Source: Raillietiella orientalis (lineage: Eukaryota). Taken from it: a stretch of DNA of 64,000 nt. The position numbers and the translations under genes were made by a program. This document shows, piece by piece, positions 3,200 to 36,867 of this stretch. The DNA is taken from NCBI GenBank assembly GCA_036172245.1, contig JAYWIR010000030.1, positions 744,001 to 808,000 of the forward strand, read 5' to 3'. Position 1 is the first letter of the stretch, and each line of letters begins with the position of its first letter. The notes below the pieces were generated by a model, which saw only the letters and a program-made list of their open reading frames with translations, did no database searches and was not told the DNA's origin.

Positions 3200-3636
3200 A
3201 AGTGAACAACATTCTCCCACGGCTCGAGAGAGGGGGAGCGCAACTGCCTATGGAGCAGCAGACACGACCGCCAGCCTCTGAAGGACATCCTGAGGAACAC
3301 CAGGAATCTGCTGTGGGCTTCGTTCACCCCCCTCGCCCCAGTGCTGCCCTGCCCTCCCTATGGGAAGCAGTGGACAGCCAACATCCAGCGAGGTGGGAAG
3401 TGACGTGTGAAATCCAAAAAAGAAGAAACATCTGGGTACGCGGACAACTCGGGAGCTGGCGGACGCTGTGACCCCGAATGTCACACCAAAAGCACTGCTA
3501 CGCTGGGGAGAGCTACTACAAATTCCTACGGAGGAGGTGAAGTCGCCCCCAGCGTGCCGGAGCAGCACCCTCCCCCTTAAGTGGCAGGAGTCGGCGACCC
3601 TGCTGCTGCTGCACTGGGGCCTCCCTTGCGACGCCC
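3200..3636 (+). mobile_element. Tx1/L1-like non-LTR retrotransposon ORF2 C-terminal fragment
   Basis: Frameshifted peptides LLWASFTPLAP, RWEVTCEI and PKALLRWGELL...LPLKWQESATLLLLHWGLPC match the other Tx1-like pieces in the window (e.g. 9876-10600). Confidence 0.75.
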
Positions 3637-5267: not shown

Positions 5268-7140
5268 ATGGAACAATTTATCTGTTGCTCCTGCAAATCT
5301 CCTCTGGTAGCGCAAGAATCCATCTCAGCAATTCCATGTGGACATATGGTCCATAGCAGCTGCTTACAACATCTTCCAAGGGATTCTCCTGCTGGGTAGC
5401 TTTTTGTGTAAATTACCGTCAGTGCTACTCAAAATGATGTCCCAGTTTTCCTAGATGCCCTATTTGCGACCATGTAATGCAACCTGGTGAAGAAGCAAGG
5501 AGATTGTATTTTACTACTGATTTGGTGGAAATTGACCCTAATGAACTAATCACTCGTGAACAACAACGAGCTGCACTTCAGGAAGCTAGGTATTGTGCAT
5601 TGATCAAATTTCAGCCATCTAAGGAATACAGTGTAACCAGTTGTAAACAAGAATTAGACATGATTTGCAGATTTGAAATATCCATTTACTAACTTGATCA
5701 GGATTTCATGTATGATAGCAAGATATTTGAATCATTCATAAAATTGTTATGAGTTACAGATAATCAAATAATTTATTTTATTTTTCAATACCAGTCAGCT
5801 GCTTTTTCATAAATCAATTGAAAGTTCTTCTCAGAAATACATCTAGAGACTGTTTGGCACGTTTACATGAGACCAGAACTGCTTATGCCGCCTTGAACAC
5901 AGAAAATGGTGAAGTTTTGTACTCCCTGAAGGAATGTCAGGAGTCCAAACTTTGGCATGCAGCAGTCTATGAGAAAATTGCAAAATTACAGCAGTAAGTG
6001 CTTGCTTTTGTTTTCTTTATATTCTTAATGCAAATTTTTTTAGCATTAAAGAGATATTAGAAGCTAGTAGTTCTTACATCGATATGTATAAAGCAAGAAT
6101 TCCAGCTGATCATGAAAATGTGAATATTTTATGTACACTAAGTGGAGTACTACACAGGTAGTCATGTTTTTTAGAGTTTTGTTGTTGTTGATTGTTTTTG
6201 TGGATCTCAATATTTTATCACTTTTGCATACGGATGCATTTTTATTCTGTGAATCATTTAATAGCTGTTCTAAGCAGCTTGAATAGAATGGAGAAAATTT
6301 GCATTCATTTCCTAAACTTCTTTTCTTCTTTTTTTTCTTTTTTTTTCCCATGGTCTCATACAAGATTCCTATTGCCCATTTTCTCTCAAAAATTTGCTTT
6401 GTGGAACTACTAAGGGATGTTTAATTCAAATCAGATATGAGACATTCGTTTCTGGTTTGCTTTGTGCTGAACCAAGTTTTCCAGGGTGCGTTAAAGTTTG
6501 GGAATTGAATGTTTGATGCTATGTCAGCACATTCTCAAATGAGTGTTTCACTCTAGGGAACTTCAGGGATGTCAAGCAGAATTGCAGTTGAAGAAGCAAA
6601 GGCTGGAGAAATCTGAGCAGTTAGTCACAGCCCTCAGAGAATCTGTGAAAGGCTTTGAAAGGAAGCTCGCAAATCGCCAACAGCAAATAGTGCAATTGAC
6701 TGAAGAAAATAAGAAGCTTCGTGACAGTTTGGATCACATAAGTTCAGCTATGGCTTCAACTACTGGTGTCACGAGTGGGGTTTCACATGCAAATTCTGTT
6801 CCCAGGCCGGAAGACACTGGTTCACCTAATCACCAAGGTATCTGAATAAAAGTTGTGTGTGAAAGTGTTTGTTTGCTGTCAAGTTGGTTCATCTGGGATG
6901 TTGGTGCGTCCTCATCAGAAGGTCTCTTCAGAAGGTTGCGGAAGTTGTTTGTCTGAAATGAAAAGGGGCAAACTCGATGGCAGATGGGGTGGTGAGGGTG
7001 CGGCCATGTTTTCTTTGAATTGCGATGACAAGAGACGTTGCAAGCAAGTTAAAGATAAGCAGATAATCCGGATTAGTTGTAAGAACTCTAAAAAACTCAC
7101 CAAAGTTTGGAACTTTTTGTGGGATCGTCCTCATGCTTAA
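5268..7140 (+). CDS. TRAIP: TRAIP-like RING-H2 + coiled-coil E3 ubiquitin ligase, copy 1 (exons 5268-5395, 5446-5589, 5835-5993, 6044-6157, 6557-6837, 6932-7140; 344 aa)
   Basis: Spliced frame is open. The RING CCSC-x14-CGHMVHSSC-x14-CPIC is followed by RLYF (TRAIP has KLFF), then a long coiled coil, then C-terminal KLDGRWGG and TKVWNFLWD, reminiscent of the TRAIP GxDGLGG and KLDTFLWS motifs. An in-frame stop lies upstream of the ATG. The last-exon acceptor is less certain. Confidence 0.8.
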
Positions 7141-7274
7141 CCCTTTTATGACGTGTGTCCCCAAATAAAATTCGTTTTGCTAATGCAAGACCAATGATGT
7201 CACGGGAGGAAAGCAGTGAAGCTGATATACCTCCCTTTGTGCATTGACGGTACCTTCAACATGTGTGCAGAATC

Positions 7275-8309
7275 ATGGAACCTATGGCCATTGGTTCCTC
7301 GAATAGTCCCAACAAGAGTGATTTGGGGTGCTCTCAGTATTTGCCCAGTTTTCTTTTGGGTGAATCTGTGTTGTCTGCATGTCCCACGAGCAGGCAATCC
7401 GCAGGATGCTCCGATCCTCTCCTCCGATCCTCTCCGAAGGTGGGAAGCCACTCGTTTTCTCCGAATGCGGATCTTTCTTCATCTAGGTTGGACAGGTGAT
7501 ATGCGTGTGCCGTGAGCGTTTTGTTAACTGTTGCGTGTTTCAGATCTTTTGGGCGTCGTTTTTCTCCGGAAGGACACGTGAATTTTTCCCATGGTCAGGC
7601 GGCGAGTTGTAATAAAATGAGAACGTCTGGCTGCAATGCAGGGCCCCCCGTCATCTCCCAGCTGCTGTCCCCATCGCTTCCTTCCAGTTGCTTCAGCGAA
7701 TCTCGATCCCTTCAACCCAGTTTGGGAATGTGAGTGGTGCAGATGACAATCCGAGTGCTTGCTTAGTCAGCAGACATCTGATGACAATACTTGGGTGACG
7801 GTATTTGGCTTTCTTCCATCAGCTTGCGCGTACATTCTGGAACAGTTTTCGTCCTATGGGAATGTACTTGAGCACATACTTCCATCTCGTGGTAATTGGA
7901 TGCATCTCCATTATGAAAACGCTCTGCAAGCCCACAAAGCCTTGTGCAAAAATGGCCACATACTTGGAGATGCCATTATGATTGGCGTAAAAGCGTGTAC
8001 GCACAAAGTAAGCAGCAAGTGAAAATGTGTGTGAATGCGCGAATTTTCGAAAACGTTGTTGCAGGACGCCACGAGGGATGCCACTTTGAGTGGCAGCGGA
8101 CCGAGGAAAGTGGAACACGTGCAAGGGTACACACCTCCATCACGACTTTTGTCATCTTCTAGTTGGGCAGCGAAAGCTAATCACGACGTCAGTTGTCATC
8201 CTGCGCGCATTCCTGTTAATCTGCTCCGTTGTAGGTGATCCCGTGTTCCCCAGTGCCTCAAAGGAGTAATGGCCTGATGAATCGTGCAATGGAATTGCTG
8301 GGATGGTGA
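7275..8309 (+). CDS. NUP35: Nucleoporin Nup35/Nup53, copy 1 (exons 7275-7495, 7544-7729, 7767-8007, 8065-8187, 8235-8309; 281 aa)
   Basis: N-terminal EPMAIGS..SP...QYLPSFLLG, Nup35-type RRM WVTVFGF...ILEQFSSYG...GNWMHLHY..ALQAHKALCKNG..LGDAIMIGVKAC, and C-terminal amphipathic helix GLMNRAMELLGW-stop. All introns are GT-AG and in phase. Confidence 0.95.
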
Positions 8310-8855
8310 AGTACACGTTTCAAGTCGAAAGATTCGTCATTTTGTGTGGTTCAGCATCTCGCAGAGTCATTAAAAATATTCAACATGGTTACATGGCTTC
8401 GAGGTGTCTAATTGTGATGAACATTTGTGAATGCATCGTAAGGGAGTGGTAATTGAGGTTTTCTTCTCCCTCTCCGTCTTTCTGTTGACAGCGGTGGCTT
8501 AAACTGGCGGGAAGTTTTCCTAGTTGGATCACTTTTGATGCTTGAAGCAATCCAGCCGGATGAATTCTGGGAAAATTCCCCCCACTTTTCATGGTTGAGG
8601 TTTGGGGAGGTTTTTTTTTTTTTTTTTGCTGATGTTTATCCAGTAACGATCGACATCTGATGCTGACCGCTCTCGAATTGTGCAGTGCTGCCTGTATCTG
8701 GATGGTAATATTTGCACATCAGGTTTCGAAACGAACTGGCTCATGTTGTCGTTGTGACAAAGTGTTCGTTTAATTGATCTAGCTTTATGAGGTAATGGTG
8801 AGGTACAGGAAAATATCATTTGAACCTCAATCAATTAAGAAATACGTGTTCCATA

Positions 8856-9664
8856 TCCACCCGCGCGACCGAGGTTCACCCTCCCAAGCGTGGCGCTCGC
8901 CGGGAGACTGGTTGCGCCTCGCTGGAGCGCGCGAACATCTGCGTGCATTCCTGCGAGGTTGCCAACTGCAGACTCTCGCTGACTGGGACAAAATAAAACG
9001 CTCATTGCGAGAGTTCTGCGACCAGTTTCCCCTCCTCGGCGTGACCCGGTGGCAACAACCAGTTTCCCCTCCATCAACTTCCTCCAGGTTTCGGGGAAGG
9101 GGTGAGGAACGACAGGAGCAATCTGCATGCCCGTCGTTCCTCCAACAAGCCCGACGTTCGTCGCCTGGCGGAATTCAAGGCTGGAGCAGAGGCAGGCCTG
9201 GCAATCCGGATCTGCCTGCTTACTGGACGAAGATGGCCAGGAGCAATCCACTTCAGCGCAGGTTTGCCGCATCTTGCGAGATTTTTACTCCTCCCTCTAC
9301 GCAAGGAAAACATCAGAGCGCGTCTTTGCGCCGCGTTTGCTGTCAGAGGGAGCGCCTGCGCCAAGGGAGGAGCAACTTCACCACTTAGACCAAGAATACA
9401 CGATGACGGAGATTATCTCCGCCATCGTGAAACTAAAAAAACATAAAGCACCAGGGGAAGACGGCCTGCCAGCGGAATTCTATCAACACTTCGCGACAGA
9501 GCTGGTTCCCCTGGTGCACCAACTATGTACGCTGATCCGTGAAGGTGGGGATGTCCCCAACTCGTTCCGGTCAGCTAGAGTACGTCTCCTGCCCAAGGGT
9601 GGAGACTTGCGCAACGTTGGCAACTGGCGTCCCATCACTATAGTGAATGCGGACGCGAAGTTGC
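8856..9664 (+). mobile_element. Tx1/L1-like ORF2 fragment: post-endonuclease linker and RT N-terminus
   Basis: WDKIKRSLREFC, FYSSLY, KAPGEDGLPAEFY and LLPKGGDLRNVGNWRPITIVNADAKLL are L1/Tx1-clade RT motifs. Confidence 0.92.
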
Positions 9665-10600
9665 TTGTTGCCACCCGGTCACGCCGGGGCGGTTATTATA
9701 AATTCTCTACATTGTGGTACAAGGCCCCACTACGGCCAACTCAACGGGACCTGCTGGGTTGCCGGTACGCAGACCGGCGCGACGCCCCTCGGCAGCGGAA
9801 TGGGATAGGGGGAGAAAAACAAAAAGAAAAAATAAAACATAAAAAACAAAAGGATTTGTGAGGGCGGGGAAGGGATCACGGTCCACTGGGAGGAGGATCC
9901 ATCCTTTCCAGGATGCCCTCGAGGTCCGTCCGTATAATTCCCAGGTGGGGCCATCTGATCGCAATCCGCAGGTAGTGGATTGCAAGTACTACGGCATCCC
10001 TGTCGTGGCTCGGTCTTCTCACGTCGCTCCAGCACGTCACAATCCCTCGTACGCAGCAGAGCGCTGCCAGGGCAGCGGCTGGTCGCAAGGCATCCTGCAC
10101 GAACAGAAGCCGAAAAACGTCTCTGGGCTGGCTGCCCTCCTGCAGCCGTAGGGAGGTACCAAGACGTTCCCACAGGGGTCGGAGGGCAGCGCAATCAACA
10201 AGGAGGTGGGGGAGGGTTTCCCGCTCCCTGCACCTGATGCATGCGGGATCCACTCGACCCCTGGTCCAGTGGTGGCGGCGTGCGTTGCAGGGTAGGCCCC
10301 AGTGCAACAACAGAAGCGCCGACTCCTGCCACATCAGGGGGAGGATCCTCGATCCAATGAATACCGGGGGCCACTTCAGTTCATCCGTCTGGATGCCGAG
10401 CAGCTCTCCCCATCTCACTAATCCTCGCGGAAGGACACTTCGGGTCGTGGAGTCTGCCAGTTCCCTTATGGACCAGCCGCTCATCAGCTTCTCCTTGCCT
10501 GCGATACGGCAGAAGACTTGCCACCTGGGCTTGCGGCTGCTGGAGAGCGCCTTCCTCAAGAAGGGCATCGCCGTAGCTAGGGGGGTTATCTCTGCCCACG
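9665..10600 (-). mobile_element. 5'-truncated Tx1/L1-like element: CCHC region and 3' UTR, antisense to its neighbours
   Basis: CIRCRERETLPHLLVDC zinc knuckle, T-rich tract after the stop, and the family terminal motif at 9665-9692. Confidence 0.9.
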
Positions 10601-12072
10601 TGCTTCTTGCGCCCCCCTCTTGCGCCCTCTGCTTTTTGTTTGCCCGCCCTCCTACTCGGCCAAGCTCCAGGCGCAAAGCCTGTTGAGGAATGCTCTGTGG
10701 GGACCTGCGAGGTCCAGGATCCGCCTAAAAGACTTGGCGGCTCCGCGTCGGGATGCTGGCTTGGGCATCCTGACGCTGGAGAGAATCGAGCTGCAGGTGC
10801 AGCTTCGGATGTTGGCCCTGTGCGCAAACCTTTGGTCCACTCCGTGGTGCGCTCCCGCGCGCCTGCTTCTGCGGCGCTGCACCGGCAGCGACGGACTTCT
10901 GTCGCTGCGGCCGCACACGGAGCGCCCCACGACAAGTTTCGGTTTCCCTTTGAAACCGCTCTACCGGCTCCTGGCAGCCCAGGAATGGATCTCCTGCCGC
11001 CCAACGAACTTTCAAGCCTGGCGGCAGGAACCGTTGTATGGCTGGACAAAGCACCAGGATGTCTCCCCTCCTGGAACTCCGTTGCGTTCACCTCTCCCCG
11101 TACTGCACGGTGGATGAGGTCTGCAGCAGCCAGGAGAAGTGGACTCGCCTGGCCGTCACGCCGCTCGCCGACGCGCTGTCAGCCCTCAGGGCAAGAGATG
11201 ACAGCTGCGAACCGGCGAGATGGGAGGTCGCCTGCACCATCTCAGGAACAACACGACCCATTGGCGGCTGGAGGACTTGCGAGCTGGCAGACGCCGCCAC
11301 GCCTCGCCACATCCCGAAGGGACTGCTTCGGTGGAGTGAACACTTGAGTGTGCCCCCCGAAGAACTTGTGGTCCCTCCCTCCTGTTTGAACACTTCTGTG
11401 TTCCCCCTTTCGTGGAAGCAGGACGTCATCATGCTGGGCAGTGGGGTTTTCACTCCAACCAGCGGTCGAACCGTGTTTCCGGGGGAGTTGTCATTCCAAA
11501 CTGAAAGCGGTGCGGGGAAGTGGAAACGCTCCCGCACCTGCTCCTGGACTGCGGTGCCCTCCTAGGACTTTGACGGAGGCTGGCTTCAGCTCTCCTGCAC
11601 CAGGGGGACACCGCGAGAGACTTGATGCGCCGCTTCTTCACGCCAGGCGGCCTGTCTTTAGGTGCTGTCGTTGCAACCGTGTGTTGCACCCGCGCCATCG
11701 ACAAGGCCCACCGAGAGCTGGAGAAGCTGGCCATCCTTCGTCAGCCCACCGGATTAGCCAGCACAAGCATGTCGTCGGCTGCCAAGTGGACCCATCTGCC
11801 ACAGGACGTAAGGAGAGAGATCGCCGGCATCCATCGCCGGTTCTGAAAGGAAGGAACGGTCGAACCAAAGACCCCTGTCCCCTGCCCTCCATATTTTTCT
11901 TTTTATTTTTTATACTGGTGTATTTGTGGTCCCCTCCTTCCCGTTCCGGGCTTTCGGTATACCGACCTGCGTGTCGGGGATCCCACCCACTTCGTCTTCT
12001 CTGTATCCTTTGTCCGGGAACTCTGTTCCCGGATAGTTTTTCAATGAACGTCCCGGCGCACCCGGGTGATAA
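10601..12072 (+). mobile_element. Tx1/L1-like element 3' part: post-RT region to 3' terminus
   Basis: LRNALWG..RSRI...LAAPRRDAGLGI post-RT motif and a degenerate CCHC; homologous to 31000-32447; ends tcccggcgcacccgggtgataa. Confidence 0.88.
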
Positions 12073-12617
12073 CCAGCCACCCCCCTGCGATCCTCTCGAT
12101 CTCCTGTGCGTTCTCCGCGGTGATCACGTGGATCTCCTGCAGGAGCGCCAGGTCGAAGTCACGCAGGGTGGCGGCCGTGTCCCGTCTGTTGCCGTCGTCG
12201 CGCAGCCCGTTGACATTCCAACAGGCCGCGCGGATCCGACAGCGACAGGCGAGTCCAGGTGTTATTCCCGGGAAAGTGGCAATGGGGCTCCCGCCACCTG
12301 GTCGGGCGGGACTGATGGAGGAATGGGGGCACCGCGCACCGGTTCTCCCTCCTCCATGGGGCCGATTCCTCGGAAACCGCAACGGTGGAAGGGGACGGGT
12401 TTCACGCACCTGCTCCCCCTCTTCCATGGGGCGGATTCGTCGGCTTGGCTGGACAGCGGGGGGGAGCGGTTTTGAACTGTCTGCTCCCCCTCCTCCATGG
12501 CTATCTCCTCCTCAGCAGGACTCATCGGTGGAAGGGGGGCGGCAATCACTTACCTGCTCACCCTCCTCCATGGGGGTGCCCAGCTGCTCGGTAGCGCAGC
12601 GTGGGAAAATCCCTTCC
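12073..12617 (-). mobile_element. Tx1/L1-like ORF1 end and APE endonuclease N-terminus
   Basis: RIRAACWNVNGLRD...FDLALLQEIH is the start of an APE endonuclease domain; it is preceded by repeated MEEGEQ-coding units. Confidence 0.85.
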
Positions 12618-14712
12618 ACGATTGTGGCCACCATTCTTTTCTTCATGCTTAGCGTATAGATCAATCCGCCAAAATCCGAGTTGATATCAGGTTCACATCA
12701 GCTTGCACCCAAACGTTTCTGCGCGCCCTGTTGCAATGGTCCTACCCACCACAACTTGAAGAACCCGCCACCCTCCGATGGGAGAACTCTGCAGGTCGTA
12801 ACAGCTCATCCCCAGCTGTCGGGTAAAGTGTAACTCGAGCGTGACTTACCTCTATGGCGATTCGCTTCGGCAGAAGGGACTCCTGAGAAGATTCCGAATT
12901 CCCCGGTCGCCACACTGCTGACTACGGCAACCCATACCTTTCATGTAATGTAGCGACGAATCAGTTACTTCAGCTGAACGCTTGGTTCACCTCACAGCTC
13001 CACTCCTGCTTTACATAATTCCCCACTGGGCCCGCCAGCACCAAGCGCAAGTTTGGCAGTGGTCCTTGAGCTTTACGAATGTTTTGCAACCTAGCAATGA
13101 CTTGTGAGTAATAGCGGTTTTTAAAAGTGTGATGCGAGCTGCCGACATGGTGGAACAGGACACGCTTCCTTATTCCTAAGCTTTTAATCCATCCGACCAT
13201 AGTGTCCCGAAGCTCCTAATAAGCAAACCCAGTTACAGTGGGACATCGGATCCATCGTACGGGTAACAACCCAACACACCCAACACAGTGGTCCTCAGGG
13301 TAGGAGAAACTGTTCGCGTGGCATTCAAATCCTACTCTGCGGCAGCTGATGGAAACTGGTACATCGGAGTCTCCTGCAGGTAAAATAGCTGGGACTTCTG
13401 AAATCAGCATCTGGGACAGAGAGTTTCAAAATGTAGATGCCTCTACTGGGAATGTGGATCTCCAGGTTAGTATCGTCACGATCCCCATAAATGCCCTTCA
13501 AACTAGACGGTTCATACTTCTACCTTACACAGGAGAAAATGTTGATCTATACCGGCGAAATATGGCCTTTGGATCTCTCAAGGCCATCACCTCATCGGTC
13601 AGGGCATTTTTTGTACAGGGAAAGCGGGAATTTGCTTCGTGTCTTGGTTAACAAAGGGATGGACATCAATGGAGACTCCTCAAAGGAATTGCCGAAAATA
13701 TAGCGAGGGCTGTTTACTATGTTGGCTCTTTCAGAGGGCTGTTGTACTTTTCGCAGTTTGCTGAACTTAAACATCAAAAACAGAAAAAGATACGATGGAT
13801 TTCCCCGTTATCAGGCAAACACTTTTAAGGATCGATCAAACTCCAGGGTTCCTAGGCTCTTAAACATCGGAGCCTTCTCTCCGAAGAAGCAAGCTGCAGG
13901 CATCAACTGAATTTGACGAGAATGCCTGAGCTTTAAATATGAGGTCGCCGCCTGTCCCATGGCTACTTCTTTAAATGTTGCAGTCGAAACAATTTGGTAT
14001 TCTCTCGGCTCTACTGTCTGAGGTGTTATTTCTGCATTGAAAACACGGAAAAGCACTGCCACAAATTCAAAGAGTGGCACGAGACAAAAGATTGATCTTT
14101 CGTATGGCTGGCAAGAACAAACAAGTGAGAACAACAGAGGTCTCGATTCCAAGGAAGGGAAGTGGAGCAGGAAAGGGAGTCTGCACCACACGCATAAGCT
14201 AAGACCGTACTCAGGACAAATCTGGTTTTCCCAAAGAAGAAGGGATAGGGAGCCATAGAAAACACCGGAGTAATTTCCCTCGCACCAAAGAAACAGATCA
14301 TTGAATAACAGCCCCCGAACGATTGGATCCTCAGCACCTAGAATGGTGGTGAACTACGAGGCTATGATGGGACGATGACAAACAGTCCAAGAACATAAAA
14401 AAAACCATGAAACGAGCAGAAAAGAAAGTGCTCGTGTTGCGGGGTGATGCTACCTTGAAAGAAATGGTCTCACGGGGACCTCCGAAACTCACTTTAGAAA
14501 ATTATAACAACAAGAAAGATCAGAGGCAAATCAGATGTGCGATGAGCGGCCGCATGGAGTGGAAAGGAAGAAACCTAGAAGGAAACACACCACTCAATCC
14601 GAAGGAAAGTCGGCAAAGCTGAAGAGCACACTGCACAAGGAAACTAATAACAGAAACAGAATTTAAACAAGAGGACTTGTGAATTTTCCATTTGTTATTA
14701 TTACGTTCTCAG
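12618..14712 (+). repeat. Segmental repeat B, copy 1
   Basis: Apparently identical to 22247-24341 (offset 9629); shared start acgattgtggccacc. Confidence 0.97.
12900..13410 (-). mobile_element. Degenerate SGNH/GDSL esterase domain, probably ORF1 of a CR1/L2-type element (second copy at about 22530-23040)
   Basis: AILPAGDS, VLFHHVGSS, LRLVLAGP and EVNQAF occur in SGNH block order, broken by stops and frameshifts. Confidence 0.5.
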
Positions 14713-15774
14713 GAAAATATGGAACCGCGTTTGTAGTTGGGCGATCAAACAGGCGCAGTACCTTTGCAGAAAAAAGTTTGTGAAACGAACTCGGAATTTC
14801 TTCCAGTGGGGGGCCACTTTTCGAGCATTCATAAGCGTATTCTTCGCAGGGTGGAGCTTTGCATTTTTTTTTTTTTCGGACAGCAAAACGAAACAGCGTT
14901 TGCACCGACCGCCTTGAGGGAACAGCAGCGCCGTGGCACGGAGTGCCAGAAATCCCATTTGGTGCGTTTTCTCATTCCAGGATGCTTTTTGCATCTTCCC
15001 TCATCTACCAGCAAATGCAAAGCCTCGTAAAGGGGAAAGTGGAAGTGGCGTGCCCGAGGTGCGCAGCTCGGCATGTTGCGAATCGGCGCAGCAGCCATCT
15101 TCGTCATACGTCATCAGCGGCCGTTTCGAAACGGAGCGCCTCGGCCCTGCTCGCGTCGGCGGCGGAGTGGCAACGCGAAGGCCGGTCGGTGCTTCCTGCG
15201 AGCTCTGTGTGGAATCGCAAAGGATGTCGTCTGGAAAGGGATCGACTTCAGCATCGAATTTGCTTCCGCATTGTGTGCGAGGATGCATCGTTGAATAGCG
15301 GGAAAATGCAGAGTGAATATGTACTCCCACTCCAGGGAAGAGAGGAAAATAGCGGAGTGATGTTCGGTGCAGAAACTGAGCCGCTTCGTGTGCCATAAAA
15401 TGGAATCGCAAGAGATATGGTAAGTGCGATGTTTGATCCAATTGATCGAATTCAAACAGTGTTGGATTACTGTGGTCAGGTTTTGTTTGTGTTTCCCTCC
15501 CTTGGAGTAACCATAGTAATCTTACAATAGTCTATTAACCAAAGTCTAACATTGGAGCAGCATCCCCACCTGTGCTGCTGTGTTTTCTTTTTCTGTCTTT
15601 TCTAGACGGAGTTTTGTTCTCGTTCCGAAATTTGAAGTTTTGGCACCAGAGCACCTTTTGACATCTTGCTGCAAGAAGCAGGTTCTTATCTTGACATAAT
15701 TTTGTAAAGCATATTCCATAATGTTTATTAGGCGTACGTTCCTGTTGAAACGTTTCCACTACTGAGAGAAAAGG

Positions 15775-17648: not shown

Positions 17649-17782
17649 CCCTTTTATGACGTGTGTCCCCAAATAAAATTCGTTTTGCTAATGCAAGACC
17701 AATGATGTCACGGGAGGAAAGCAGTGAAGCTGATATACCTCCCTTTGTGCATTGACGGTACCTTCAACATGTGTGCAGAATC

Positions 17783-18817
17783 ATGGAACCTATGGCCATT
17801 GGTTCCTCGAATAGTCCCAACAAGAGTGATTTGGGGTGCTCTCAGTATTTGCCCAGTTTTCTTTTGGGTGAATCTGTGTTGTCTGCATGTCCCACGAGCA
17901 GGCAATCCGCAGGATGCTCCGATCCTCTCCTCCGATCCTCTCCGAAGGTGGGAAGCCACTGTTTTCTCCGAATGCGGATTCTTTCTTCATCTAGGTTGGA
18001 CAGGTGGGATATGTGTGCCGTGAGCGTTTTGTTAACTGTTGCGTGTTTCAGATCTTTTGGGCGTCGTTTTTCTCCGGAAGGACACGTGAATTTTTCCCAT
18101 GGTCAGGCGGCGAGTTGTAATAAAATGAGAACGTCTGGCTGCAATGCAGGGCCCCCCGTCATCTCCCAGCTGCTGTCCCCATCGCTTCCTTCCAGTTGCT
18201 TCAGCGAATCTCGATCCCTTCAACCCAGTTTGGGACTGTGAGTGGTGCAGATGACAATCCGAGTGCTTGCTTAGTCAGCAGACATCTGATGACAATACTT
18301 GGGTGACGGTATTTGGCTTTCTTCCATCAGCTTGCGCGTACATTCTGGAACAGTTTTCGTCCTATGGGAATGTACTTGAGCACATACTTCCATCTCGTGG
18401 TAATTGGATGCATCTCCATTATGAAAACGCTCTGCAAGCCCACAAAGCCTTGTGCAAAAATGGCCACATACTTGGAGATGCCATTATGATTGGCGTAAAA
18501 GCGTGTACGCACAAAGTAAGCAGCAAGTGAAAATGTGTGTGAATGCGCGAATTTTCGAAAACGTTGTTGCAGGACGCCACGAGGGATGCCACTTTGAGTG
18601 GCAGCGGACCGAGGAAAGTGGAACACGTGCAAGGGTACACACCTCCATCACGACTTTTGTCATCTTCTAGTTGGGCAGCGAAAGCTAATCACGACGTCAG
18701 TTGTCATCCTGCGCGCATTCCTGTTAATCTGCTCCGTTGTAGGTGATCCCGTGTTCCCCAGTGCCTCAAAGGAGTAATGGCCTGATGAATCGTGCAATGG
18801 AATTGCTGGGATGGTGA
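17783..18817 (+). CDS. NUP35: Nup35/Nup53, copy 2
   Basis: As copy 1, except for a compensating -1/+1 indel pair near 17959-17980. Confidence 0.92.
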
Positions 18818-20749
18818 AGTACACGTTTCAAGTCGAAAGATTCGTCATTTTGTGTGGTTCAGCATCTCGCAGAGTCATTAAAAATATTCAACATGGTTAC
18901 ATGGCTTCGAGGTGTCTAATTGTGATGAACATTTGTGAATGCATCGTAAGGGAGTGGTAATTGAGGTTTTCTTCTCCCTCTCCGTCTTTCTGTTGACAGC
19001 GGTGGCTTAAACTGGCGGGAAGTTTTCCTAGTTGGATCACTTTTGATGCTTGAAGCAATCCAGCCGGATGAATTCTGGGAAAATTCCCCCCACTTTTCAT
19101 GGTTGAGGTTTGGGGAGGTTTTTTTTTTTTTTTTGCTGATGTTTGTCCAGTAACGATCGACATCTGATGCTGACCGCTCTCGAATTGTGCAGTGCTGCCT
19201 GTATCTGGATGGTAATATTTGCACATCAGGTTTCGACGAACTGGCTCATGTTGTCGTTGTGACAAAGTGTTCGTTTAATTGATCTAGCTTTATGAGGTAA
19301 TGGTGAGGTACAGGAAAATATCATTTGAAGCTCAATCAATTAAGAAATACGTATTTTCATAGTCAAGGGAATGCTATAAGAATTGCAATTTACTTAATCT
19401 GATCAGGACGAGTTGCGAAAAAGTTTCATCTGACTTCATCTCTGCTTCAAGTGTTACTCTTAATTTTTATAGATATGGGCTTCTTTCGTGTATACGGTTC
19501 ATTGAGGAATTCTGTTAGAAATGTGGCTATTCTGTTCGTGTGCAGTCTTTTCCAAAAGAGCTTTATGTTTTTTTAGGGATGGATTTTCTTTCCAGAAGCG
19601 TCATTCTAGCAATAATGGTGTCTTTGCTAATTTGCATTCTCTTTTGTTTGGGGCTGCATGCGTTTTTGGAAGGTTCGAGATTGATTCTTGACTGTTGGCT
19701 CTTTGAGAAAATTCAAGGATTATTTGCTTAAGAATGTTGATTGTTCTCAACATTTGAATTATGAGGCAATTCGCTAGTAAGGGTGCCCCAGTCTAGTTGT
19801 GATGAAATAGAGGATCATATCTGTAGACTTATAGGATGTTTGTGGGTGAACTGATTGGTGTTACATAGAGGAGTGCAAAACTGGCAATTTCTGCTTTCTA
19901 CCAATGCTAACTGAACGTGAACTAATTTGTCCACTCGCAGACTGGGCATGTAAAACTCCAGTTATATGAAATAATACTAACTGTGGCGTTTGTAATTGTT
20001 TTAAGTGTCTACTAAAGTGAGAAAACACGACATTGGGCTATTTTGTTGTGTGTTTTTGGCGTTAGAATGGAGAAGTAGTAAGGTGTCGGTGTTCAGTGAG
20101 GTACTGTGTAGTGTACCCTTAGAACCCTTGGTTTCTAAAATTCTCGCCGTTGAAAAACAAAACGCTTTTATCATAAGAATTAGTTTTTGTCCGTGTGTGT
20201 ATCCTGTCGTTTATTATTGCAATGAGTGTTGTCCACAGGGACATTTTTCGCTGAATCAAAAGTTGAGAGCCCGTTTCATTTCCGACATTTAAGATTGGAA
20301 TTTAATGAAAAAGGAAACGATTTTACTGTATAGAAATGGTAAAATACATGAATTTTGTCAACAGTGTGTAAGATTCACAGCAATAGAGGTGAACCGCGGT
20401 AGTGGGTTGTGTTTGTTTTCCGATGTGCCACGAGACAGATATAAAATGAATAGTAAGATATCAGCATCTTAACGCGAAACGCATGCTAGTATCTGTATTC
20501 CGTATTGTGTAGTTTGATTTGGAAACTGCATTGATATGTTGTGACGTCATCTATCGGTGAGGAACAGCTTTCAGCAAATGCAATACGAGTTTGATAGTCA
20601 GAGAAGACCTACAGTTAACTCCATGTAACCTGTTTTCCTTATGCAAGATTTTCCCCAGTTCAACAGGCGGTGGGGTGATTTTCTTTGACTACAGGTTGTG
20701 ACAAAAGCTCAACAAATGCTTGAGCACACTTTTAACTCAAGTTTCAACA

Positions 20750-21600: not shown

Positions 21601-21700
21601 GTACATTAGTACCGCTTTTCTCGACGTTTGCTTGTGATTAGACTGGAAGTCTGGTACATTAGTACCACTTTTCTCGACGTTTGCTTGTGATTAGACTGGA
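21592..21700. repeat. 53-bp tandem duplication
   Basis: gaagtctggtacattagtaccRcttttctcgacgtttgcttgtgattagactg occurs twice head to tail with one mismatch. Confidence 0.9.
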
Positions 21701-22246
21701 ACTTATTGATTTTCACAGAAAAGAGGGAAAGGCTGTCTCTAATTTCCAGTGGCATAATGGAATAGAAGTACTTTAGAATCAGCTTTACAATGTGTGTATC
21801 TGTATCCAACTCCAATGCATAACATTTACTCGTCTATGCGCTCTGCATACGTTTGGAATCTCACATTCGTACCCTGCCTTGGTTCGAAGAATTCATTCAA
21901 AGGCTGATTAGTAGTTTCCTATTCAGTATCTCATAAATGAGCTCCATTTAGAATGCAAAATGAAGACAATACCTGAGAAGCTTCTTGGAAATGATCACAT
22001 CAGTTCCCTTCGTATCGTTTGCTAATAGTCAGATCCTTTGCATCAGGACGGAGATCCAACCGATGTCTACGTCCTGTGTTTCTCAATCACATTTCCGACT
22101 TCCACAACCCATTTCGGGAGGCAGCACCGCAATCTGGAATGTTTTCCTCATCAATTGGAAAAGATTCTTCTCTCTAAAGCACTGATAGCGTCAAGGAAGC
22201 AGGAGTTCCGGCTCTTTCGATGTTTCGATTTTAGGATACTGAAGGA

Positions 22247-24341
22247 ACGATTGTGGCCACCATTCTTTTCTTCATGCTTAGCGTATAGATCAATCCGCCA
22301 AAATCCGAGTTGATATCAGGTTCACATCAGCTTGCACCCAAACGTTTCTGCGCGCCCTGTTGCAATGGTCCTACCCACCACAACTTGAAGAACCCGCCAC
22401 CCTCCGATGGGAGAACTCTGCAGGTCGTAACAGCTCATCCCCAGCTGTCGGGTAAAGTGTAACTCGAGCGTGACTTACCTCTATGGCGATTCGCTTCGGC
22501 AGAAGGGACTCCTGAGAAGATTCCGAATTCCCCGGTCGCCACACTGCTGACTACGGCAACCCATACCTTTCATGTAATGTAGCGACGAATCAGTTACTTC
22601 AGCTGAACGCTTGGTTCACCTCACAGCTCCACTCCTGCTTTACATAATTCCCCACTGGGCCCGCCAGCACCAAGCGCAAGTTTGGCAGTGGTCCTTGAGC
22701 TTTACGAATGTTTTGCAACCTAGCAATGACTTGTGAGTAATAGCGGTTTTTAAAAGTGTGATGCGAGCTGCCGACATGGTGGAACAGGACACGCTTCCTT
22801 ATTCCTAAGCTTTTAATCCATCCGACCATAGTGTCCCGAAGCTCCTAATAAGCAAACCCAGTTACAGTGGGACATCGGATCCATCGTACGGGTAACAACC
22901 CAACACACCCAACACAGTGGTCCTCAGGGTAGGAGAAACTGTTCGCGTGGCATTCAAATCCTACTCTGCGGCAGCTGATGGAAACTGGTACATCGGAGTC
23001 TCCTGCAGGTAAAATAGCTGGGACTTCTGAAATCAGCATCTGGGACAGAGAGTTTCAAAATGTAGATGCCTCTACTGGGAATGTGGATCTCCAGGTTAGT
23101 ATCGTCACGATCCCCATAAATGCCCTTCAAACTAGACGGTTCATACTTCTACCTTACACAGGAGAAAATGTTGATCTATACCGGCGAAATATGGCCTTTG
23201 GATCTCTCAAGGCCATCACCTCATCGGTCAGGGCATTTTTTGTACAGGGAAAGCGGGAATTTGCTTCGTGTCTTGGTTAACAAAGGGATGGACATCAATG
23301 GAGACTCCTCAAAGGAATTGCCGAAAATATAGCGAGGGCTGTTTACTATGTTGGCTCTTTCAGAGGGCTGTTGTACTTTTCGCAGTTTGCTGAACTTAAA
23401 CATCAAAAACAGAAAAAGATACGATGGATTTCCCCGTTATCAGGCAAACACTTTTAAGGATCGATCAAACTCCAGGGTTCCTAGGCTCTTAAACATCGGA
23501 GCCTTCTCTCCGAAGAAGCAAGCTGCAGGCATCAACTGAATTTGACGAGAATGCCTGAGCTTTAAATATGAGGTCGCCGCCTGTCCCATGGCTACTTCTT
23601 TAAATGTTGCAGTCGAAACAATTTGGTATTCTCTCGGCTCTACTGTCTGAGGTGTTATTTCTGCATTGAAAACACGGAAAAGCACTGCCACAAATTCAAA
23701 GAGTGGCACGAGACAAAAGATTGATCTTTCGTATGGCTGGCAAGAACAAACAAGTGAGAACAACAGAGGTCTCGATTCCAAGGAAGGGAAGTGGAGCAGG
23801 AAAGGGAGTCTGCACCACACGCATAAGCTAAGACCGTACTCAGGACAAATCTGGTTTTCCCAAAGAAGAAGGGATAGGGAGCCATAGAAAACACCGGAGT
23901 AATTTCCCTCGCACCAAAGAAACAGATCATTGAATAACAGCCCCCGAACGATTGGATCCTCAGCACCTAGAATGGTGGTGAACTACGAGGCTATGATGGG
24001 ACGATGACAAACAGTCCAAGAACATAAAAAAAACCATGAAACGAGCAGAAAAGAAAGTGCTCGTGTTGCGGGGTGATGCTACCTTGAAAGAAATGGTCTC
24101 ACGGGGACCTCCGAAACTCACTTTAGAAAATTATAACAACAAGAAAGATCAGAGGCAAATCAGATGTGCGATGAGCGGCCGCATGGAGTGGAAAGGAAGA
24201 AACCTAGAAGGAAACACACCACTCAATCCGAAGGAAAGTCGGCAAAGCTGAAGAGCACACTGCACAAGGAAACTAATAACAGAAACAGAATTTAAACAAG
24301 AGGACTTGTGAATTTTCCATTTGTTATTATTACGTTCTCAG
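22247..24341 (+). repeat. Segmental repeat B, copy 2
   Basis: Direct repeat of 12618-14712. Confidence 0.97.
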
Positions 24342-25403
24342 GAAAATATGGAACCGCGTTTGTAGTTGGGCGATCAAACAGGCGCAGTACCTTTGCAGAA
24401 AAAAGTTTGTGAAACGAACTCGGAAGTTCTTCCAGTGGGGGGCCACTTTTCGAGCATTCATAAGCGTATTCTTCGCAGGGTGGAGCTTTGCATTTTTTTT
24501 TTTTTCGGACAGCAAAACGAAACAGCGTTTGCACCGACCGCCTTGAGGGAACAGCAGCGCCGTGGCACGGAGTGCCAGAAATCCCATTTGGTGCGTTTTC
24601 TCATTCCAGGATGCTTTTTGCATCTTCCCTCATCTACCGGCAAATGCAAAGCCTCGTAAAGGGGAAAGTGGAAGTGGCGTGCCCGAGGTGCGCAGCTCGG
24701 CATGTTGCGAATCGGCGCAGCAGCCATCTTCGTCATACGTCATCAGCGGCCGTTTCGAAACGGAGCGCCTCGGCCCTGCTCGCGTCGGCGGCGGAGTGGC
24801 AACGCGAAGGCCGGTCGGTGCTTCCTGCGAGCTCTGTGTGGAATCGCAAAGGATGTCGTCTGGAAAGGGATCGACTTCAGCATCGAATTTGCTTCCGCAT
24901 TGTGTGCGAGGATGCATCGTTGAATAGCGGGAAAATGCAGAGTGAATATGTACTCCCACTCCAGGGAAGAGAGGAAAATAGCGGAGTGATGTTCGGTGCA
25001 GAAACTGAGCCGCTTCGTGTGCCATAAAATGGAATCGCAAGAGATATGGTAAGTGCGATGTTTGATCCAATTGATCGAATTCAAACAGTGTTGGATTACT
25101 GTGGTCAGGTTTTGTTTGTGTTTCCCTCCCTTGGAGTAACCATAGTAATCTTACAATAGTCTATTAACCAAAGTCTAACATTGGAGCAGCATCCCCACCT
25201 GTGCTGCTGTGTTTTCTTTTTCTGTCTTTTCTAGACGGAGTTTTGTTCTCGTTCCGAAATTTGAAGTTTTGGCACCAGAGCACCTTTTGACATCTTGCTG
25301 CAAGAAGCAGGTTCTTATCTTGACATAATTTTGTAAAGCATATTCCATAATGTTTATTAGGCGTACTTTCCTGTTGAAACGTTTCCACTACTGAGAGAAG
25401 AGG

Positions 25404-27236
25404 ATGGCTATGATACAGAGGGAAGTATTTAATTGCGTCATCTGCTCAGCAGTTCTAGAACCTGTCGAATCCATCAGAGCAATTTCATGTGGGCATGTGT
25501 TCCATAATTGTTGCCTTTTTGACTGGATAAACAGGTTGCTTTTATAAGTTCTGATTAGCTCTACTCAAAATCATGTTCTAGTTCTTCAGCGACATGCCCT
25601 CAATGCCGTTCACAAGTGGAATACCTAAATCAACTTACACCATTGATGGATTGTAGTGATGTGAATGAAGTTCCTCAGAAAGTAGAAGACTATCAAGCAG
25701 AAATGGCCTTAGTAAGGTATCATGTATTGAATAAATGTCAGCTATCTAAGGAATGCAGTGTAATCAGTTGTCAATGAGAATTAGATATGATTTCCAGATT
25801 TGAAGTATCCATTTAGTAACTTGATCAAGATTTCATGTATGGCAACATGATTTTTGAATCATTCATTAAATTTATTTTATTTTTGAATATCAATTAATTG
25901 TTTTGATGATACATGAATTTGAAATTCCTTCATCAGAAAAGACACTGCTGAAGCGGATGCACACATGGAGATCATTTTAGAAAACACTATCCATTTGGAG
26001 TCACTTGTTGCAAAGAACAAAAAGTTGCTGTCAGACTGTGAGAACAGATTAAGTGAACTGGTGGATGCTGAAAACCAACTCGGATTACTTCAACAGTAAG
26101 TGTGTTAATTAATCTTGATCTTTATTGTAGTTTTTTTTTTCTTTTTAGCATTGAACAGATATTGAATCCAGATAATGAAGGGTACCTTCTACAGTTTCGT
26201 GTTCCAGATGATGAGGGAGTGAACACTTCATACAGGGCATGTGAACAAGTACAACGGTAGTGATCTTCAAAGTTTTGTCATTGTTGATCGTTTTTGTGGA
26301 TTTCAATATTTTATCACTTTTGCATATGGATGCATTTTTATTCTGTGAATCATTTAATAGCTGTTCTAAGCAGCTTGAATAGAATGGAGAAAATTTGCAT
26401 TCATTTCCTAAACTTCTTTTCTTCTTTTTTTTCTTTTTTTTTCCCATGGTCTCATACAAGATTCCTATTGCCCATTTTCTCTCAAAAATTTGCTTTGTGG
26501 AACTGCTAAGGGATGTTTAATTCAAATCAGATATGAGACATTCGTTTCTGGTTTGCTTGGTGCTAAACCAAGTTTTCCAGGGTGCGTTAAAGTTTGGGAA
26601 TTGAATGTTTGATGCTATGTCAGCACATTCTCAAATGAGTGTTTCACTCTAGGGAACTTCAGGGATGTCAAGCAGAATTGCAGTTGAAGAAGGAAAGGCT
26701 GGAGGAATCTGAGGAGTTAGTCACAACCCTCAGAGAATCTGTGCAAGGCTTTGAAAGGAAGCTCGCGAATCGCCAACAGCAAATAGTGCAATTGACTGAA
26801 GAAAATAAGAAGCTTCGTGACAGTTTGGATCACATAAGTTCAGCTATGGCTTCAACTACTGGTGTCACGAGTGGGGTTTCACATGCAAATTCTGTTCCCA
26901 GGCCGGAAGACACTGGTTCACCTAATCACCAAGGTATCTGAATAAAAGTTGTGTGTGAAAGTGTTTGTTTGCTGTCAAGTTGGTTCATCTGGGATGTTGG
27001 TGCGTCCTCATCAGAAGGTCTCTTCAGAAGGTTGCGGAAGTTGTTTGTCTGAAATGAAAAGGGGCAAACTCGATGGCAGATGGGGTGGTGAGGGTGCGGC
27101 CATGTTTTCTTTGAATTGCGATGACAAGAGACGTTGCAAGCAAGTTAAAGATAAGCAGATAATCCGGATTAGTTGTAAGAACTCTAAAAAACTCACCAAA
27201 GTTTGGAACTTTTTGTGGGATCGTCCTCATGCTTAA
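25404..27236 (+). CDS. TRAIP: TRAIP-like RING-H2 E3 ligase, copy 3 with divergent N-terminus (exons 25404-25534, 25582-25716, 25937-26095, 26149-26256, 26653-26933, 27028-27236)
   Basis: MAMIQREVFNCVICSAVLEPVESIRAISCGHVFHNCCLFDWINSSSATCPQCR is close to the canonical TRAIP RING (CGHTFHxxCLxxW...TCPQCR). All exons are open with the same phases as copy 1. Confidence 0.85.
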
Positions 27237-27370
27237 CCCTTTTATGACGTGTGTCCCCAAATAAAATTCGTTTTGCTAATGCAAGACCAATGATGTCACG
27301 GGAGGAAAGCAGTGAAGCTGATATACCTCCCTTTGTGCATTGACGGTACCTTCAACATGTGTGCAGAATC

Positions 27371-36859: not shown

Positions 36860-36867
36860 ACAATCGG

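Follow-up and report, generated by a model that had tools for sequence, protein, structure and literature searches.

A tandem array of TRAIP-like and Nup35-like genes with a candidate divergence island in the ligase front half

Introduction

Why would three tandem gene cassettes stay almost identical along most of their length and yet encode strongly different front halves of the same protein? This question is raised by a locus in the window analysed here (the whole 64-kb stretch of DNA), where each of three units carries a six-exon gene encoding a RING and a coiled coil, followed 134 nt on by a gene with a Nup35-type RRM. Near-identical cassettes that differ almost only in the coding front half of the ligase suggest selection for diversity. 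The reading we favor, at a probability of about 0.5, is that of a tandem array under concerted evolution, in which selection maintains a divergence island in an E3 ligase of the TRAIP family.

Organization of the tandem array

We compared the window with itself by BLAST and delineated three tandem units in the assembly (Table 1). Units A and B align at 98.1% over 4645 nt (4208-8847 against 14713-19352), and C matches A in two blocks, at 99.2% (A 4208-5271, C 24342-25407) and 99.3% (A 6175-8775, C 26271-28870). B and C are 99.9% identical across 12618-15778 and 22247-25407, a match that includes about 2.1 kb of additional upstream sequence (12618-14712) common to these two units only and missing from A. 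Pairwise differences (A-B/A-C/B-C) number 9/9/4 in 1062 columns of the upstream flank, 1/0/1 in 257 columns of exon 6 of the TRAIP-like gene and 7/0/7 in 1039 columns of the Nup35 gene. By these comparisons, the triplicated TRAIP-Nup35 cassette with near-identical flanks, which the initial annotation had reported over an interval running from the ATG of copy A (5268) to the stop of copy C (27236), is indeed seen in the assembly.

The sequences around the units (1-4207 upstream of A, the A-B and B-C spacers and the stretch after C) are mutually dissimilar by self-BLAST, save for one repeat-like stretch at 76%; the 64-kb window contains no N and no further TRAIP-like fragments. An ORF at 9106-9858 in the A-B spacer appears LINE-RT-like, a call made by eye and without Pfam support.

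In the read data, X1 DNA contigs match copy B exactly at 16027-16177 and 16355-16505 and have loose ends within introns 2 and 3, which could belong to further copies. A low-depth DNA run (~1-4 per bin), which may come from the assembly's own sample, contains the exact exon 3 of B together with A-specific letters.

Table 1. Coordinates of the array features in the window
Feature	Coordinates	Strand	Basis or remark
Cassette A (upstream region, TRAIP-like gene, Nup35-like gene, 3' flank)	4208..8847	+	self-BLAST, three-way alignment
Cassette B	12618..19352	+	core 14713-19352 similar to A; self-BLAST
Cassette C	22247..28870	+	core 24342-28870 similar to A and B except the divergence block; self-BLAST, alignment
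A-B spacer	8848..12617	.	G+C-rich (up to 62%) degenerate repeat DNA
TRAIP-like gene, copy A	5268..7140	+	357 codons; last acceptor uncertain
Copy A exons	5268-5395, 5455-5589, 5835-5993, 6044-6157, 6557-6837, 6884-7140	+	
TRAIP-like gene, copy B	15775..17648	+	
Copy B exons	15775-15902, 15962-16096, 16342-16500, 16552-16665, 17065-17345, last exon to 17648	+	
TRAIP-like gene, copy C	25404..27236	+	356 codons
Copy C exons	25404-25534, 25582-25716, 25937-26095, 26149-26256, 26653-26933, 26980-27236	+	
Divergence island, A	5271..6174	+	self-BLAST, alignments
Divergence island equivalents	B 15778-16682, C 25407-26270	+	
Intron 2	A 5590..5834, B 16097-16341, C 25717-25936	+	conserved within the island
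Exon 3, first helical/coiled-coil exon	5835..5993	+	A-B hot spot
Variable patch, exon 5 coiled coil	6573..6671	+	three versions
Nup35-like gene	A 7275..8309, B 17783-18817, C 27371-28405	+	tentative: six exons, 261 codons

Gene models and coiled coil

Exons 2, 3 and 5 of the TRAIP-like gene have the same length in all copies (135, 159 and 281 nt), and exons 1 and 4 measure 128/128/131 and 114/114/108 nt in A/B/C. Introns 1-4 are GT-AG and the intron phases identical (2,2,2,2,1) in the three copies, and the frame stays open through exons 1-5, as had been proposed of the variants from the outset; by simple arithmetic, the chance of a 178-codon frame staying open is ~0.0002. At the last intron, B has lost by mutation the acceptor AG used in the models of A and C and has a new AG, 6 nt further upstream, that is out of frame; with another AG, which would make the intron 28 nt long, A, B and C all stay in frame. 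In copy A, an AATAAA (7164..7169, + strand) lies 24 nt past the TRAIP-like stop and the Nup35 ATG is at 7275, a spacing that may be operon-like.

The middle of the protein has a predicted central coiled coil, as in the TRAIP/NOPO family. Hydrophobic residues occupy 72% of the a and d positions in the best register of exon 5 and no more than 44% in any other, and the exon gives weak Pfam coiled-coil-type hits; AF2 predicts one helix spanning residues 2-72 (pLDDT 85 on average, and >90 for residues 1-60). Exons 3-4 are proline-free and have moderate heptad scores. Six of the seven varying residues of the exon 5 patch fall at heptad position b, c, e or f, and one at d.

Relationship to TRAIP/NOPO

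TRAIP/NOPO is generally regarded as a conserved, single-copy genome-maintenance ligase. The architecture given for TRAIP in PMC4700480 comprises an N-terminal RING, central coiled coils and a C-terminal PIP box, the PCNA-binding last 10 residues of human TRAIP. In the translations of A, B and C, the RING-H2 pattern C-x2-C...C-x-H-x2-H-x2-C...C-x2-C is complete and starts at residue 6-11, with all eight zinc ligands apparently retained (both by eye), so that the array protein has an N-terminal RING-H2, as this family does.

Pfam zf-RING_2 scores 31.5 bits for exon 1 of C and 25.4 bits for that of A (cut-off 27.3), and PDB domains such as Arkadia/RNF165 give a generic RING-H2 match at 29 bits. 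Searching C exon 1 with phmmer against 1.84 billion representatives yielded 87 hits at E<=1e-3, mostly other or multi-RING proteins, the best 33 of which are not N-terminal; 9 of the 87 were fetched for comparison. At rank 34, the millipede protein P0034 matches C exon 1 over residues 3-36 with 47% identity and is itself related (E 7.5e-17) to the beetle protein P0089, named 'TRAF interacting protein no poles'. Exons 1 and 2 of C align collinearly to residues 4-36 and 39-87 of P0089 (E 8e-12 and 7e-5), and exon 1 of A matches it at E 9e-6; RING identity to the named TRAIP/nopo protein is 45% (44 bits) for C and 33% (27 bits) for A. A exon 2 has no match in P0034. Judged by these scores, the RING of C is the most TRAIP-like of the copies, and the identification as a RING-H2 and coiled-coil protein stands, with a C-type N-terminus that aligns collinearly with the protein named no poles.

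Towards the C-terminus, exons 5 and 6 have no significant similarity to the fetched TRAIP relatives, BLASTP of the C-terminal part against P0034 and P0089 found nothing significant, and no PIP box emerged from a phmmer search of the last-exon ORF against PDB, which returned 28 chance-level hits (E ~1), none of them TRAIP. By eye, a C-terminal '...FLW' and a 'DG..GG' stretch resemble TRAIP.

The Nup35-like gene

The tentative model of the second gene, with introns of 48, 64, 51, 57 and 29 nt, contains an RRM of the Nup53/35/40 type (RRM_Nup35, PF05172; E 7.3e-29; 100 bits, cut-off 24). It matches the mouse Nup35 RRM (PDB 1wwh) at 2.8e-28, with about half of the residues identical by eye, and PDB 4lir at 7e-28. 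The closest Atlas cluster, useful as a lead only, is 'Nucleoporin NUP35' (0.89). The sole match of the N-terminal ORF in the whole PDB is to residues 15-62 of human NUP35, collinear and weak (E 0.12), and a C-terminal helix, reached only via the 29-nt intron of the tentative model, may resemble the amphipathic, membrane-binding tail of the family. The 261-codon models are open in A, B and C; exon 1 of B contains a -1/+1 frameshift pair that is compensated within 18 nt. The linked Nup35 gene shows 0 differences in 1039 columns between A and C, the cassettes whose ligase modules differ most; this speaks against its co-varying with the ligase in the way that receptor and partner do in S-locus or toxin-antidote systems.

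Divergence between the A/B-type and C-type modules

Copy C is 99-100% identical to A outside one block, which starts 3 nt after the ATG and ends 17 nt past exon 4; this agrees with the earlier description of a variable block inside homogenised flanks. Within this block, gapped nucleotide identity of A and C in exons 1-3 is 0.50/0.49/0.47, against shuffle means of 0.46-0.47, whereas intron 2 is identical at 177 of 217 aligned columns (82%); this intron gave no Rfam match and no covariation. With exons saturated around so well conserved an intron, neutral decay cannot explain why the exons diverged faster. As proteins, the two modules share 47 of 178 residues (z = 9.8 against 500 shuffles), a level that indicates homology, and differ at 74% of residues. 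The A-C dN/dS is ~0.9 with both values near saturation (pS 0.54, pN 0.49), so positive selection on this old split is not demonstrable, and 4 of 13 four-fold sites differ, too few for dating it. The RING exists in two versions and not in the three that the initial annotation had proposed, A and B differing at 1/128 and 2/135 nt and C being saturated; its three versions of exon 3 are real.

Differences between copies A and B

Between A and B, 39 of the 42 coding differences change an amino acid (39 non-synonymous, 3 synonymous; binomial P = 0.013), a ratio of 13:1 against a neutral expectation of ~3.7:1, and exons 3 and 5 together have 35 non-synonymous and 2 synonymous differences (P = 0.007), significance that stays at the ~1-2% level only in tests on three sequences from one assembly. 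The earlier claim that the differences are overwhelmingly amino-acid-changing is borne out by these counts. The hot spot is exon 3, where 24 of 159 nt differ and 23.5 of the 24 differences are non-synonymous; this density exceeds that of the adjacent introns (14/296; P = 3e-4) and of the unit background (21/2701; P = 2e-19). Exon 5 had been taken as constant, but its 5' part has 13 variable sites in three versions, 6 unique to A and 7 unique to B; taken alone, exon 5 is not significant, either in N:S (P = 0.44) or in comparison with its introns (P = 0.08).

Over the whole CDS, A and B differ at 42/1074 sites, which is not in excess of the introns of the gene (25/800; P = 0.38); a conversion patch from an unobserved donor could therefore account for part of the signal. 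The differences around exon 3 continue into intron 2, whose last 75 nt contain 7 of them. Where A and B differ in intron 2, C has the letter of B at 6 sites, has that of A at 2 and matches neither at 1, and such mosaic sharing of variants among the copies is typical of conversion.

Proposed explanation

Near-identical flanks, a bounded block, mosaic sharing and an excess of amino-acid change in the block give the locus the features of a divergence island. The tandem array would be young or concertedly evolving, with gene conversion or unequal exchange holding the promoter, the ligase 3' half, Nup35 and most introns at 98-100%, while selection would keep apart the ligase front half (RING and first helical region, exons 1-4). 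The C-type module would be close to the conventional TRAIP/NOPO N-terminus and the A/B type derived, and amino-acid changes between A and B may still be accumulating, both within exon 3 and along the outer side of the coiled coil encoded by exon 5. We infer that the copies would act as E3 ligases with a constant coiled-coil and C-terminal scaffold and a differing RING/helix surface that sets partner, substrate or antagonist specificity, either as neofunctionalised paralogues or as an arms-race gene family. Nup35 would be a passenger, possibly co-transcribed.

More tentatively, TRAIP, normally a single-copy replisome ligase, may have been recruited into a diversifying, conflict-type family, whose tandem members would have a constant scaffold in common and be homogenised by gene conversion. 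Their interchangeable, positively selected RING/coiled-coil modules would be directed at an antagonist that evolves fast, for example a virus, a transposon or a selfish chromosome that acts during replication or at the nuclear pore. Other variants of the module may be segregating in the population or be present elsewhere in the genome, as the X1 contig ends in introns 2 and 3 hint.

Alternative explanations

A mosaic could have formed without selection: one cassette may recently have acquired its front half in one ectopic conversion or recombination event, the donor being a remote TRAIP paralogue elsewhere in the genome, or A/B and C may be old paralogues whose flanks happened to be converted. 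The island limits and the A-B patch would then be tract end points. We consider this fairly unlikely: the near-saturation of both A-C substitution classes (omega ~0.9), the spread of A-B differences from exon 3 into intron 2 and the loose X1 ends, possibly from further copies, are all compatible with it, but the island limits track coding sequence, as random tract ends would not, introns within the block are alike where exons are not, the exon 3 differences are almost all non-synonymous whatever their source, and the window contains no other TRAIP-like fragment. Nor is it likely that the assembly has strung together, as some of the copies, the alleles of one highly heterozygous locus, in which case the triplication would fall and the variability would stay as allelic diversity. 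Flank identity of 98-100% is what alleles would show, A and B letters in one run are also expected from a heterozygote, and the sole DNA run found is of low depth and may be the assembly's own sample; against this, the sequences around the units are non-allelic, dissimilar save for the one 76% stretch, the 2.1 kb upstream of B and C is lacking in A, and the window is without N.

The initial annotation had suggested a self/non-self, toxin-antidote, meiotic-drive or pathogen-recognition locus under balancing selection of the kind seen at csd, S-loci and het genes, with Nup35 as the partner. Deeply diverged open modules in homogenised flanks with conserved introns, the excess of amino-acid changes and the tight linkage of ligase and Nup35 would suit such a locus, which we regard as quite improbable given that Nup35 is invariant between the cassettes with the most different modules, that all variants are paralogues on one haplotype and not alleles, and that we found no such TRAIP system in the literature. 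Neofunctionalising tandem paralogues with a divergence island maintained against gene conversion would fit equally well. It is highly improbable that the extra cassettes are redundant copies drifting into pseudogenes. Copy B, which lacks the last-intron acceptor AG of A and C and carries the Nup35 frameshift pair, may be damaged; nevertheless, that pair is compensated, the frame is open in all three ligase genes (356-357 codons) and in all three Nup35 models, neither the zinc ligands, judged by eye, nor the splice sites of introns 1-4 are damaged, and drift would neither raise N:S from ~3.7:1 to 13:1 nor spare introns.

Significance and comparison with known systems

If TRAIP has been triplicated in this lineage, the array would add a new case of adaptive diversification in a core replication factor. 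The argument for this is the presence of two intact RING/coiled-coil modules of ancient divergence and the amino-acid changes that continue to separate A and B. It would also offer an unusually clean natural case of selection keeping an exon-bounded island against gene conversion, useful for testing models of concerted evolution, and, should substrate or antagonist specificity be determined by the modules, these would mark the recognising surface of TRAIP-type ligases.

The array protein resembles TRAIP/NOPO in its RING-H2 at the extreme N-terminus, in the CPQCR motif that contains the second zinc-ligand pair of the C copy and in the long helical/coiled-coil middle that follows the RING. It differs in being shorter (~357 aa) and in being encoded by three tandem genes that carry two N-terminal modules of ancient divergence, where TRAIP is generally single-copy and conserved. 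The companion gene shares the RRM_Nup35 domain with Nup35/Nup53/Nup40, and its N-terminal motif may be collinear with that of human NUP35; unlike these nucleoporins, its tentative model is short (261 aa), and it sits 134 nt behind a ligase gene and is triplicated with it.

TRIM5/TRIM22-type restriction-factor clusters consist of tandem RING and coiled-coil E3 paralogues under positive selection; here, by contrast, the varying part includes the RING itself. As a candidate identity, a TRIM-type restriction factor was rejected, Pfam searches of the exon ORFs giving only RING and coiled-coil-type hits and neither B-box nor SPRY/B30.2. In MHC genes, introns are reported to be homogenised around anciently diverged exons, and venom PLA2 and conotoxin genes show 'accelerated exon evolution'; the array shares with them exons more diverged than introns, and we know of no link of its ligase to immunity or venom.

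Divergence islands that persist under gene conversion are described as a sign of selection in PMC3924837 and PMC3728101, the former reviewing interlocus gene conversion theory and the latter treating copepod GOT1 paralogues. Like the islands described there, our candidate combines homogenised flanks, a bounded conversion-resistant block and mosaic sharing among copies; unlike them, its limits match coding boundaries almost to the nucleotide, and its exons are saturated around an internal intron that is still 82% identical.

Tandem ligase–Nup35 units with homogenised flanks

In the assembled sequence, self-BLAST resolved three direct copies (A, B and C) of a single unit, each carrying a TRAIP-like RING/coiled-coil ligase gene followed by a Nup35-like gene, in a 64-kb window that contains no N and in which no other TRAIP-like or Nup35-like fragment was found. 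A and B are 98.1% identical across 4645 nt, and B and C have a further 2.1 kb of upstream sequence in common (12618–15778 matching 22247–25407 at 99.9%). C equals A at 99.2% over A 4208–5271 and at 99.3% over A 6175–8775; between these two stretches lies a 0.9-kb block without BLAST similarity except for a 158-nt piece at 85%. The spacers between the units consist of G+C-rich degenerate repeat DNA and are mutually unlike. No terminal inverted repeats were found at the unit ends, so a DNA-transposon carrier of the unit is unsupported. The putative promoter part of the unit, 1.06 kb at 4208–5267 with copies in B and C, has long ORFs on both strands, for which Pfam returned no match; this part may be more than regulatory DNA.

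Positions of the units, the ligase gene of copy A and other features of the window, with A–C identity across the divergence island
Feature	Position	Strand	Description
Unit A	4208–8847		direct copy, 4.6-kb unit
Unit B	14713–19352		direct copy, 4.6-kb unit
Unit C	24342–28870		direct copy, 4.6-kb unit
Ligase exon 1	5268–5395	+	A–C identity 0.50; shuffled means 0.46–0.47
Ligase intron 1			A–C identity 0.58; shuffle maximum 0.56
Ligase exon 2	5455–5589	+	A–C identity 0.49; shuffled means 0.46–0.47
Ligase intron 2			A–C identity 0.73 with gaps; shuffle mean 0.50
Ligase exon 3	5835–5993	+	A–C identity 0.47; shuffled means 0.46–0.47
Ligase exon 4	6044–6157	+	A–C identity 0.55; equals shuffle maximum
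Ligase exon 5	6557–6837	+
Ligase last exon	to 7140	+
Long ORFs of the upstream part (examples)	4191–4892; 4495–5025	+; −
CCDC92 coiled-coil domain ORF	555–743	−	E 1.3e-9, above cut-off
DOCK DHR-2 lobe A ORF	2549–2878	+	E 5e-4, below cut-off
LSU rRNA fragment	36846–37360	+	515 nt, RF02543 positions 957–1444, 184 bits
Segment abutting the LSU rRNA fragment	36193–36847		655 nt; inverted copy at 51892–52546, 99.5%
U2 snRNA gene, full-length	54184–54361	+	RF00004, 64 bits (gathering score 46)
Inverted repeat pair	39115–39911; 45259–46056		about 800 nt, 97.4%
Older repeat copies (example)	10611–12068; 31003–32444		74–79%

Gene models of the ligase

In every unit the ligase gene has six exons on the plus strand, with GT-AG introns 1–4, intron phases of 2,2,2,2,1 in all three copies, and reading frames open across 356–357 codons. 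The lengths of exons 1–5 in A/B/C are 128/128/131, 135 in all, 159 in all, 114/114/108 and 281 in all. Exons 1 and 2 encode a RING-H2 domain, for which Pfam zf-RING_2 gives C exon 1 a score of 31.5 bits and A exon 1 one of 25.4 bits, the latter under the cut-off; all eight zinc ligands, judged by eye, are kept in the three translations. Exon 5 encodes a canonical heptad coiled coil, with 72% hydrophobic a/d positions in one register and a helix predicted over residues 2–72 in an AF2 model.

At the last intron, the acceptor AG consistent with A and C (a 46-nt intron) is missing from B, where two substitutions at 17385 and 17391 (A 6877 and 6883) destroy it and create an out-of-frame AG 6 nt upstream. 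The last junction is therefore putative, and the C-terminus of B may not be intact. An alternative upstream AG, common to all three copies, would give a 28-nt last intron and hold A, B and C in frame. An AATAAA motif lies 24 nt 3' of the ligase stop codon.

An island of divergence bounded by exons

The island in which A and C have diverged begins 3 nt past the start codon and ends 17 nt beyond exon 4. Inside it, the nucleotide identity of the exons is close to that of shuffled sequences and that of intron 2 is well above it (table), with 177 of 217 aligned columns of the intron identical (82%). The two modules are homologous as proteins, with 47 of 178 residues identical (z 9.8). Codon alignment gave pS 0.54 and pN 0.49, both near saturation, and 4 of 13 four-fold sites differ, too few for dating the split. 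Two histories would fit: the exons greatly predate the intron, with homogenisation of the introns, or exons and intron are coeval and change in the exons has been much more rapid. Neutral decay is excluded under both, as it is unable to make exons diverge beyond an intron lying between them; something has kept or driven the coding sequences apart. For intron 2, a conserved RNA finds no support (RNAalifold −18 kcal/mol, covariation term 0.02), and an Rfam search at E≤1 over 5200–8900 gave one chance-level bacterial sRNA match only.

Differences between A and B

The initial annotation had described three distinct versions of the RING and first coiled-coil exons. Exon 3 fits this description; the RING exons do not, A and B being separated there by 1 and 2 nt. 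Across the whole CDS, A and B show 39 non-synonymous and 3 synonymous differences (dN 0.048, dS 0.013), a non-synonymous excess against the expected 21% synonymous share (binomial P = 0.013). Exon 3 accounts for 23.5 non-synonymous and 0.5 synonymous differences (dN 0.22, dS 0.015; transitions and transversions 12 each by hand count), at a density of 24/159; the introns on either side have 14/296 (P = 3e-4) and the remainder of the unit 21/2701 (P = 2e-19). A second patch occupies the 5' part of exon 5, where 6 of 13 variable sites are private to A and the other 7 to B, which makes each of the three copies distinct; 11.5 of the 13 A–B differences are non-synonymous, and 6 of the 7 varying coiled-coil residues occupy outward-facing heptad positions.

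Several observations stand against reading these differences as selection. Exon 5 taken alone is not significant; the CDS shows no overall excess over its own introns (42/1074 versus 25/800, P = 0.38); and the exon 3 patch reaches into intron 2. An unseen donor may be the source of this patch. Simple conversion of B exon 3 from C is ruled out by mixed matches: of the A–B difference sites in this exon, C agrees with B at 10 and with A at 8, and departs from both at 6.

The Nup35 neighbour

The Nup35-like gene begins 134 nt after the ligase stop codon (ATG 7275) and encodes an RRM of the Nup53/35/40 type (PF05172, 100 bits; mouse Nup35, 2.8e-28) that is similar to animal Nup35. Its N-terminal motif found only human NUP35 in the PDB, and weakly (E 0.12). 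A tentative model of six exons and 261 codons, dependent on a 29-nt intron, is open in all copies; in B, a −1/+1 frameshift pair in exon 1 near 17961 and 17979 (A 7453 and 7471) is compensated within 18 nt and alters six residues. A and C show 0 differences in 1039 positions, and 7 sites differ from B. Nup35 variation therefore does not track the ligase module, which counts against a paired-specificity system; the gene is most readily viewed as a passenger, or as a possibly co-expressed neighbour.

Independent sequencing data

Among public sequencing runs, the sole match was a DNA run (X1; 0.06 of sampled words), and no RNA run was among the matches. Compared over 15700–26280, X1 has low depth, with 19 of 30 bins lacking cover and no listed piece in the variable exons of C. 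Contigs of 151 nt match B exactly at exon 2/intron 2 (16027–16177) and exon 3 (16355–16505), and other contigs bear A letters at sites of A–B or A–C difference (16623, an indel at 16513, 25156, 25166 and 25284). Hence, A-type and B-type sequences are both present in the sample, possibly the very one from which the assembly was made. Some X1 contigs have loose ends at 16159 (B intron 2), 25883–25884 and 26146 (C exon 3/intron 3), where 217–255 nt unlike the window follow; these could represent additional copies or variants, or else repeats.

Genomic neighbourhood

The source is an animal-like eukaryote of compact gene structure, with introns mostly of 46–64 nt. Outside the cassettes, a Pfam search of 90 long ORFs and 121 shorter ones returned only a CCDC92 and a weak DOCK DHR-2 match, both upstream of A, which are probably exons of neighbouring animal-type genes. 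The LSU rRNA fragment, of eukaryotic type, is embedded in G+C-rich repeat DNA, and the inverted repeat pair belongs to the right half of the window, which is G+C-rich. Other repeat copies, more diverged, suggest old transposon families.

Interpretation and relationship to TRAIP

The initial observation is largely real and non-random. On our preferred reading, to which we assign a probability of about one half, the locus is a tandem array under concerted evolution, and the RING/coiled-coil half of its TRAIP-family ligase forms a divergence island that selection maintains and continues to extend. Apart from the divergence pattern itself, nothing supports the proposed recognition, toxin-antidote and drive functions, and the invariance of Nup35 makes them less likely.

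Word-indexed protein searches with the exon 5 and C exon 1 ORFs gave no match. With phmmer, C exon 1 matched 87 of 1.84 billion representatives at E≤1e-3, mostly other or multi-RING proteins. Among the 9 of these 87 examined was a millipede protein (P0034) with the RING at residues 3–36 (47% identity), which shows homology along 99% of its length with P0089, a beetle protein named 'TRAF interacting protein no poles' (E 7.5e-17). C exon 1 aligns with P0089 residues 4–36 (45% identity, pairwise E 8e-12) and C exon 2 follows collinearly at residues 39–87 (E 7e-5); A exon 1 matches more weakly (33% identity, E 9e-6). The C-type module is the more conventional of the two module types. For A exon 2 no match to P0034 was obtained, and the exons for the coiled coil and the C-terminus likewise matched neither of these TRAIP relatives; an Atlas search with C exon 1 returned generic RING clusters only, and RING matches in the PDB were only generic RING-H2. 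Four loci from a metagenome scan with the exon 5 ORF (L001–L004) were rejected as unrelated, with 27–39% similarity confined to the coiled coil (local tblastn), no RING match, and a G+C content of 26–28% or 63%.

Divergence islands that persist despite gene conversion are an established evolutionary pattern, described in PMC3924837 and PMC3728101. Titles and abstracts on TRAIP with Nup35, paralogue selection or tandem duplication revealed no such locus, and a divergence island with exon-exact boundaries in TRAIP therefore appears to be new. TRAIP itself, according to PMC4700480, has a RING at the N-terminus, coiled coils in the centre and a PIP box at the C-terminus. Here a PDB search with the last exon gave no informative match and revealed no PIP box. 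Both the RING and the coiled coil are present, and by this predicted N-terminal architecture we call the ligase TRAIP-family-like, with orthology unproven.
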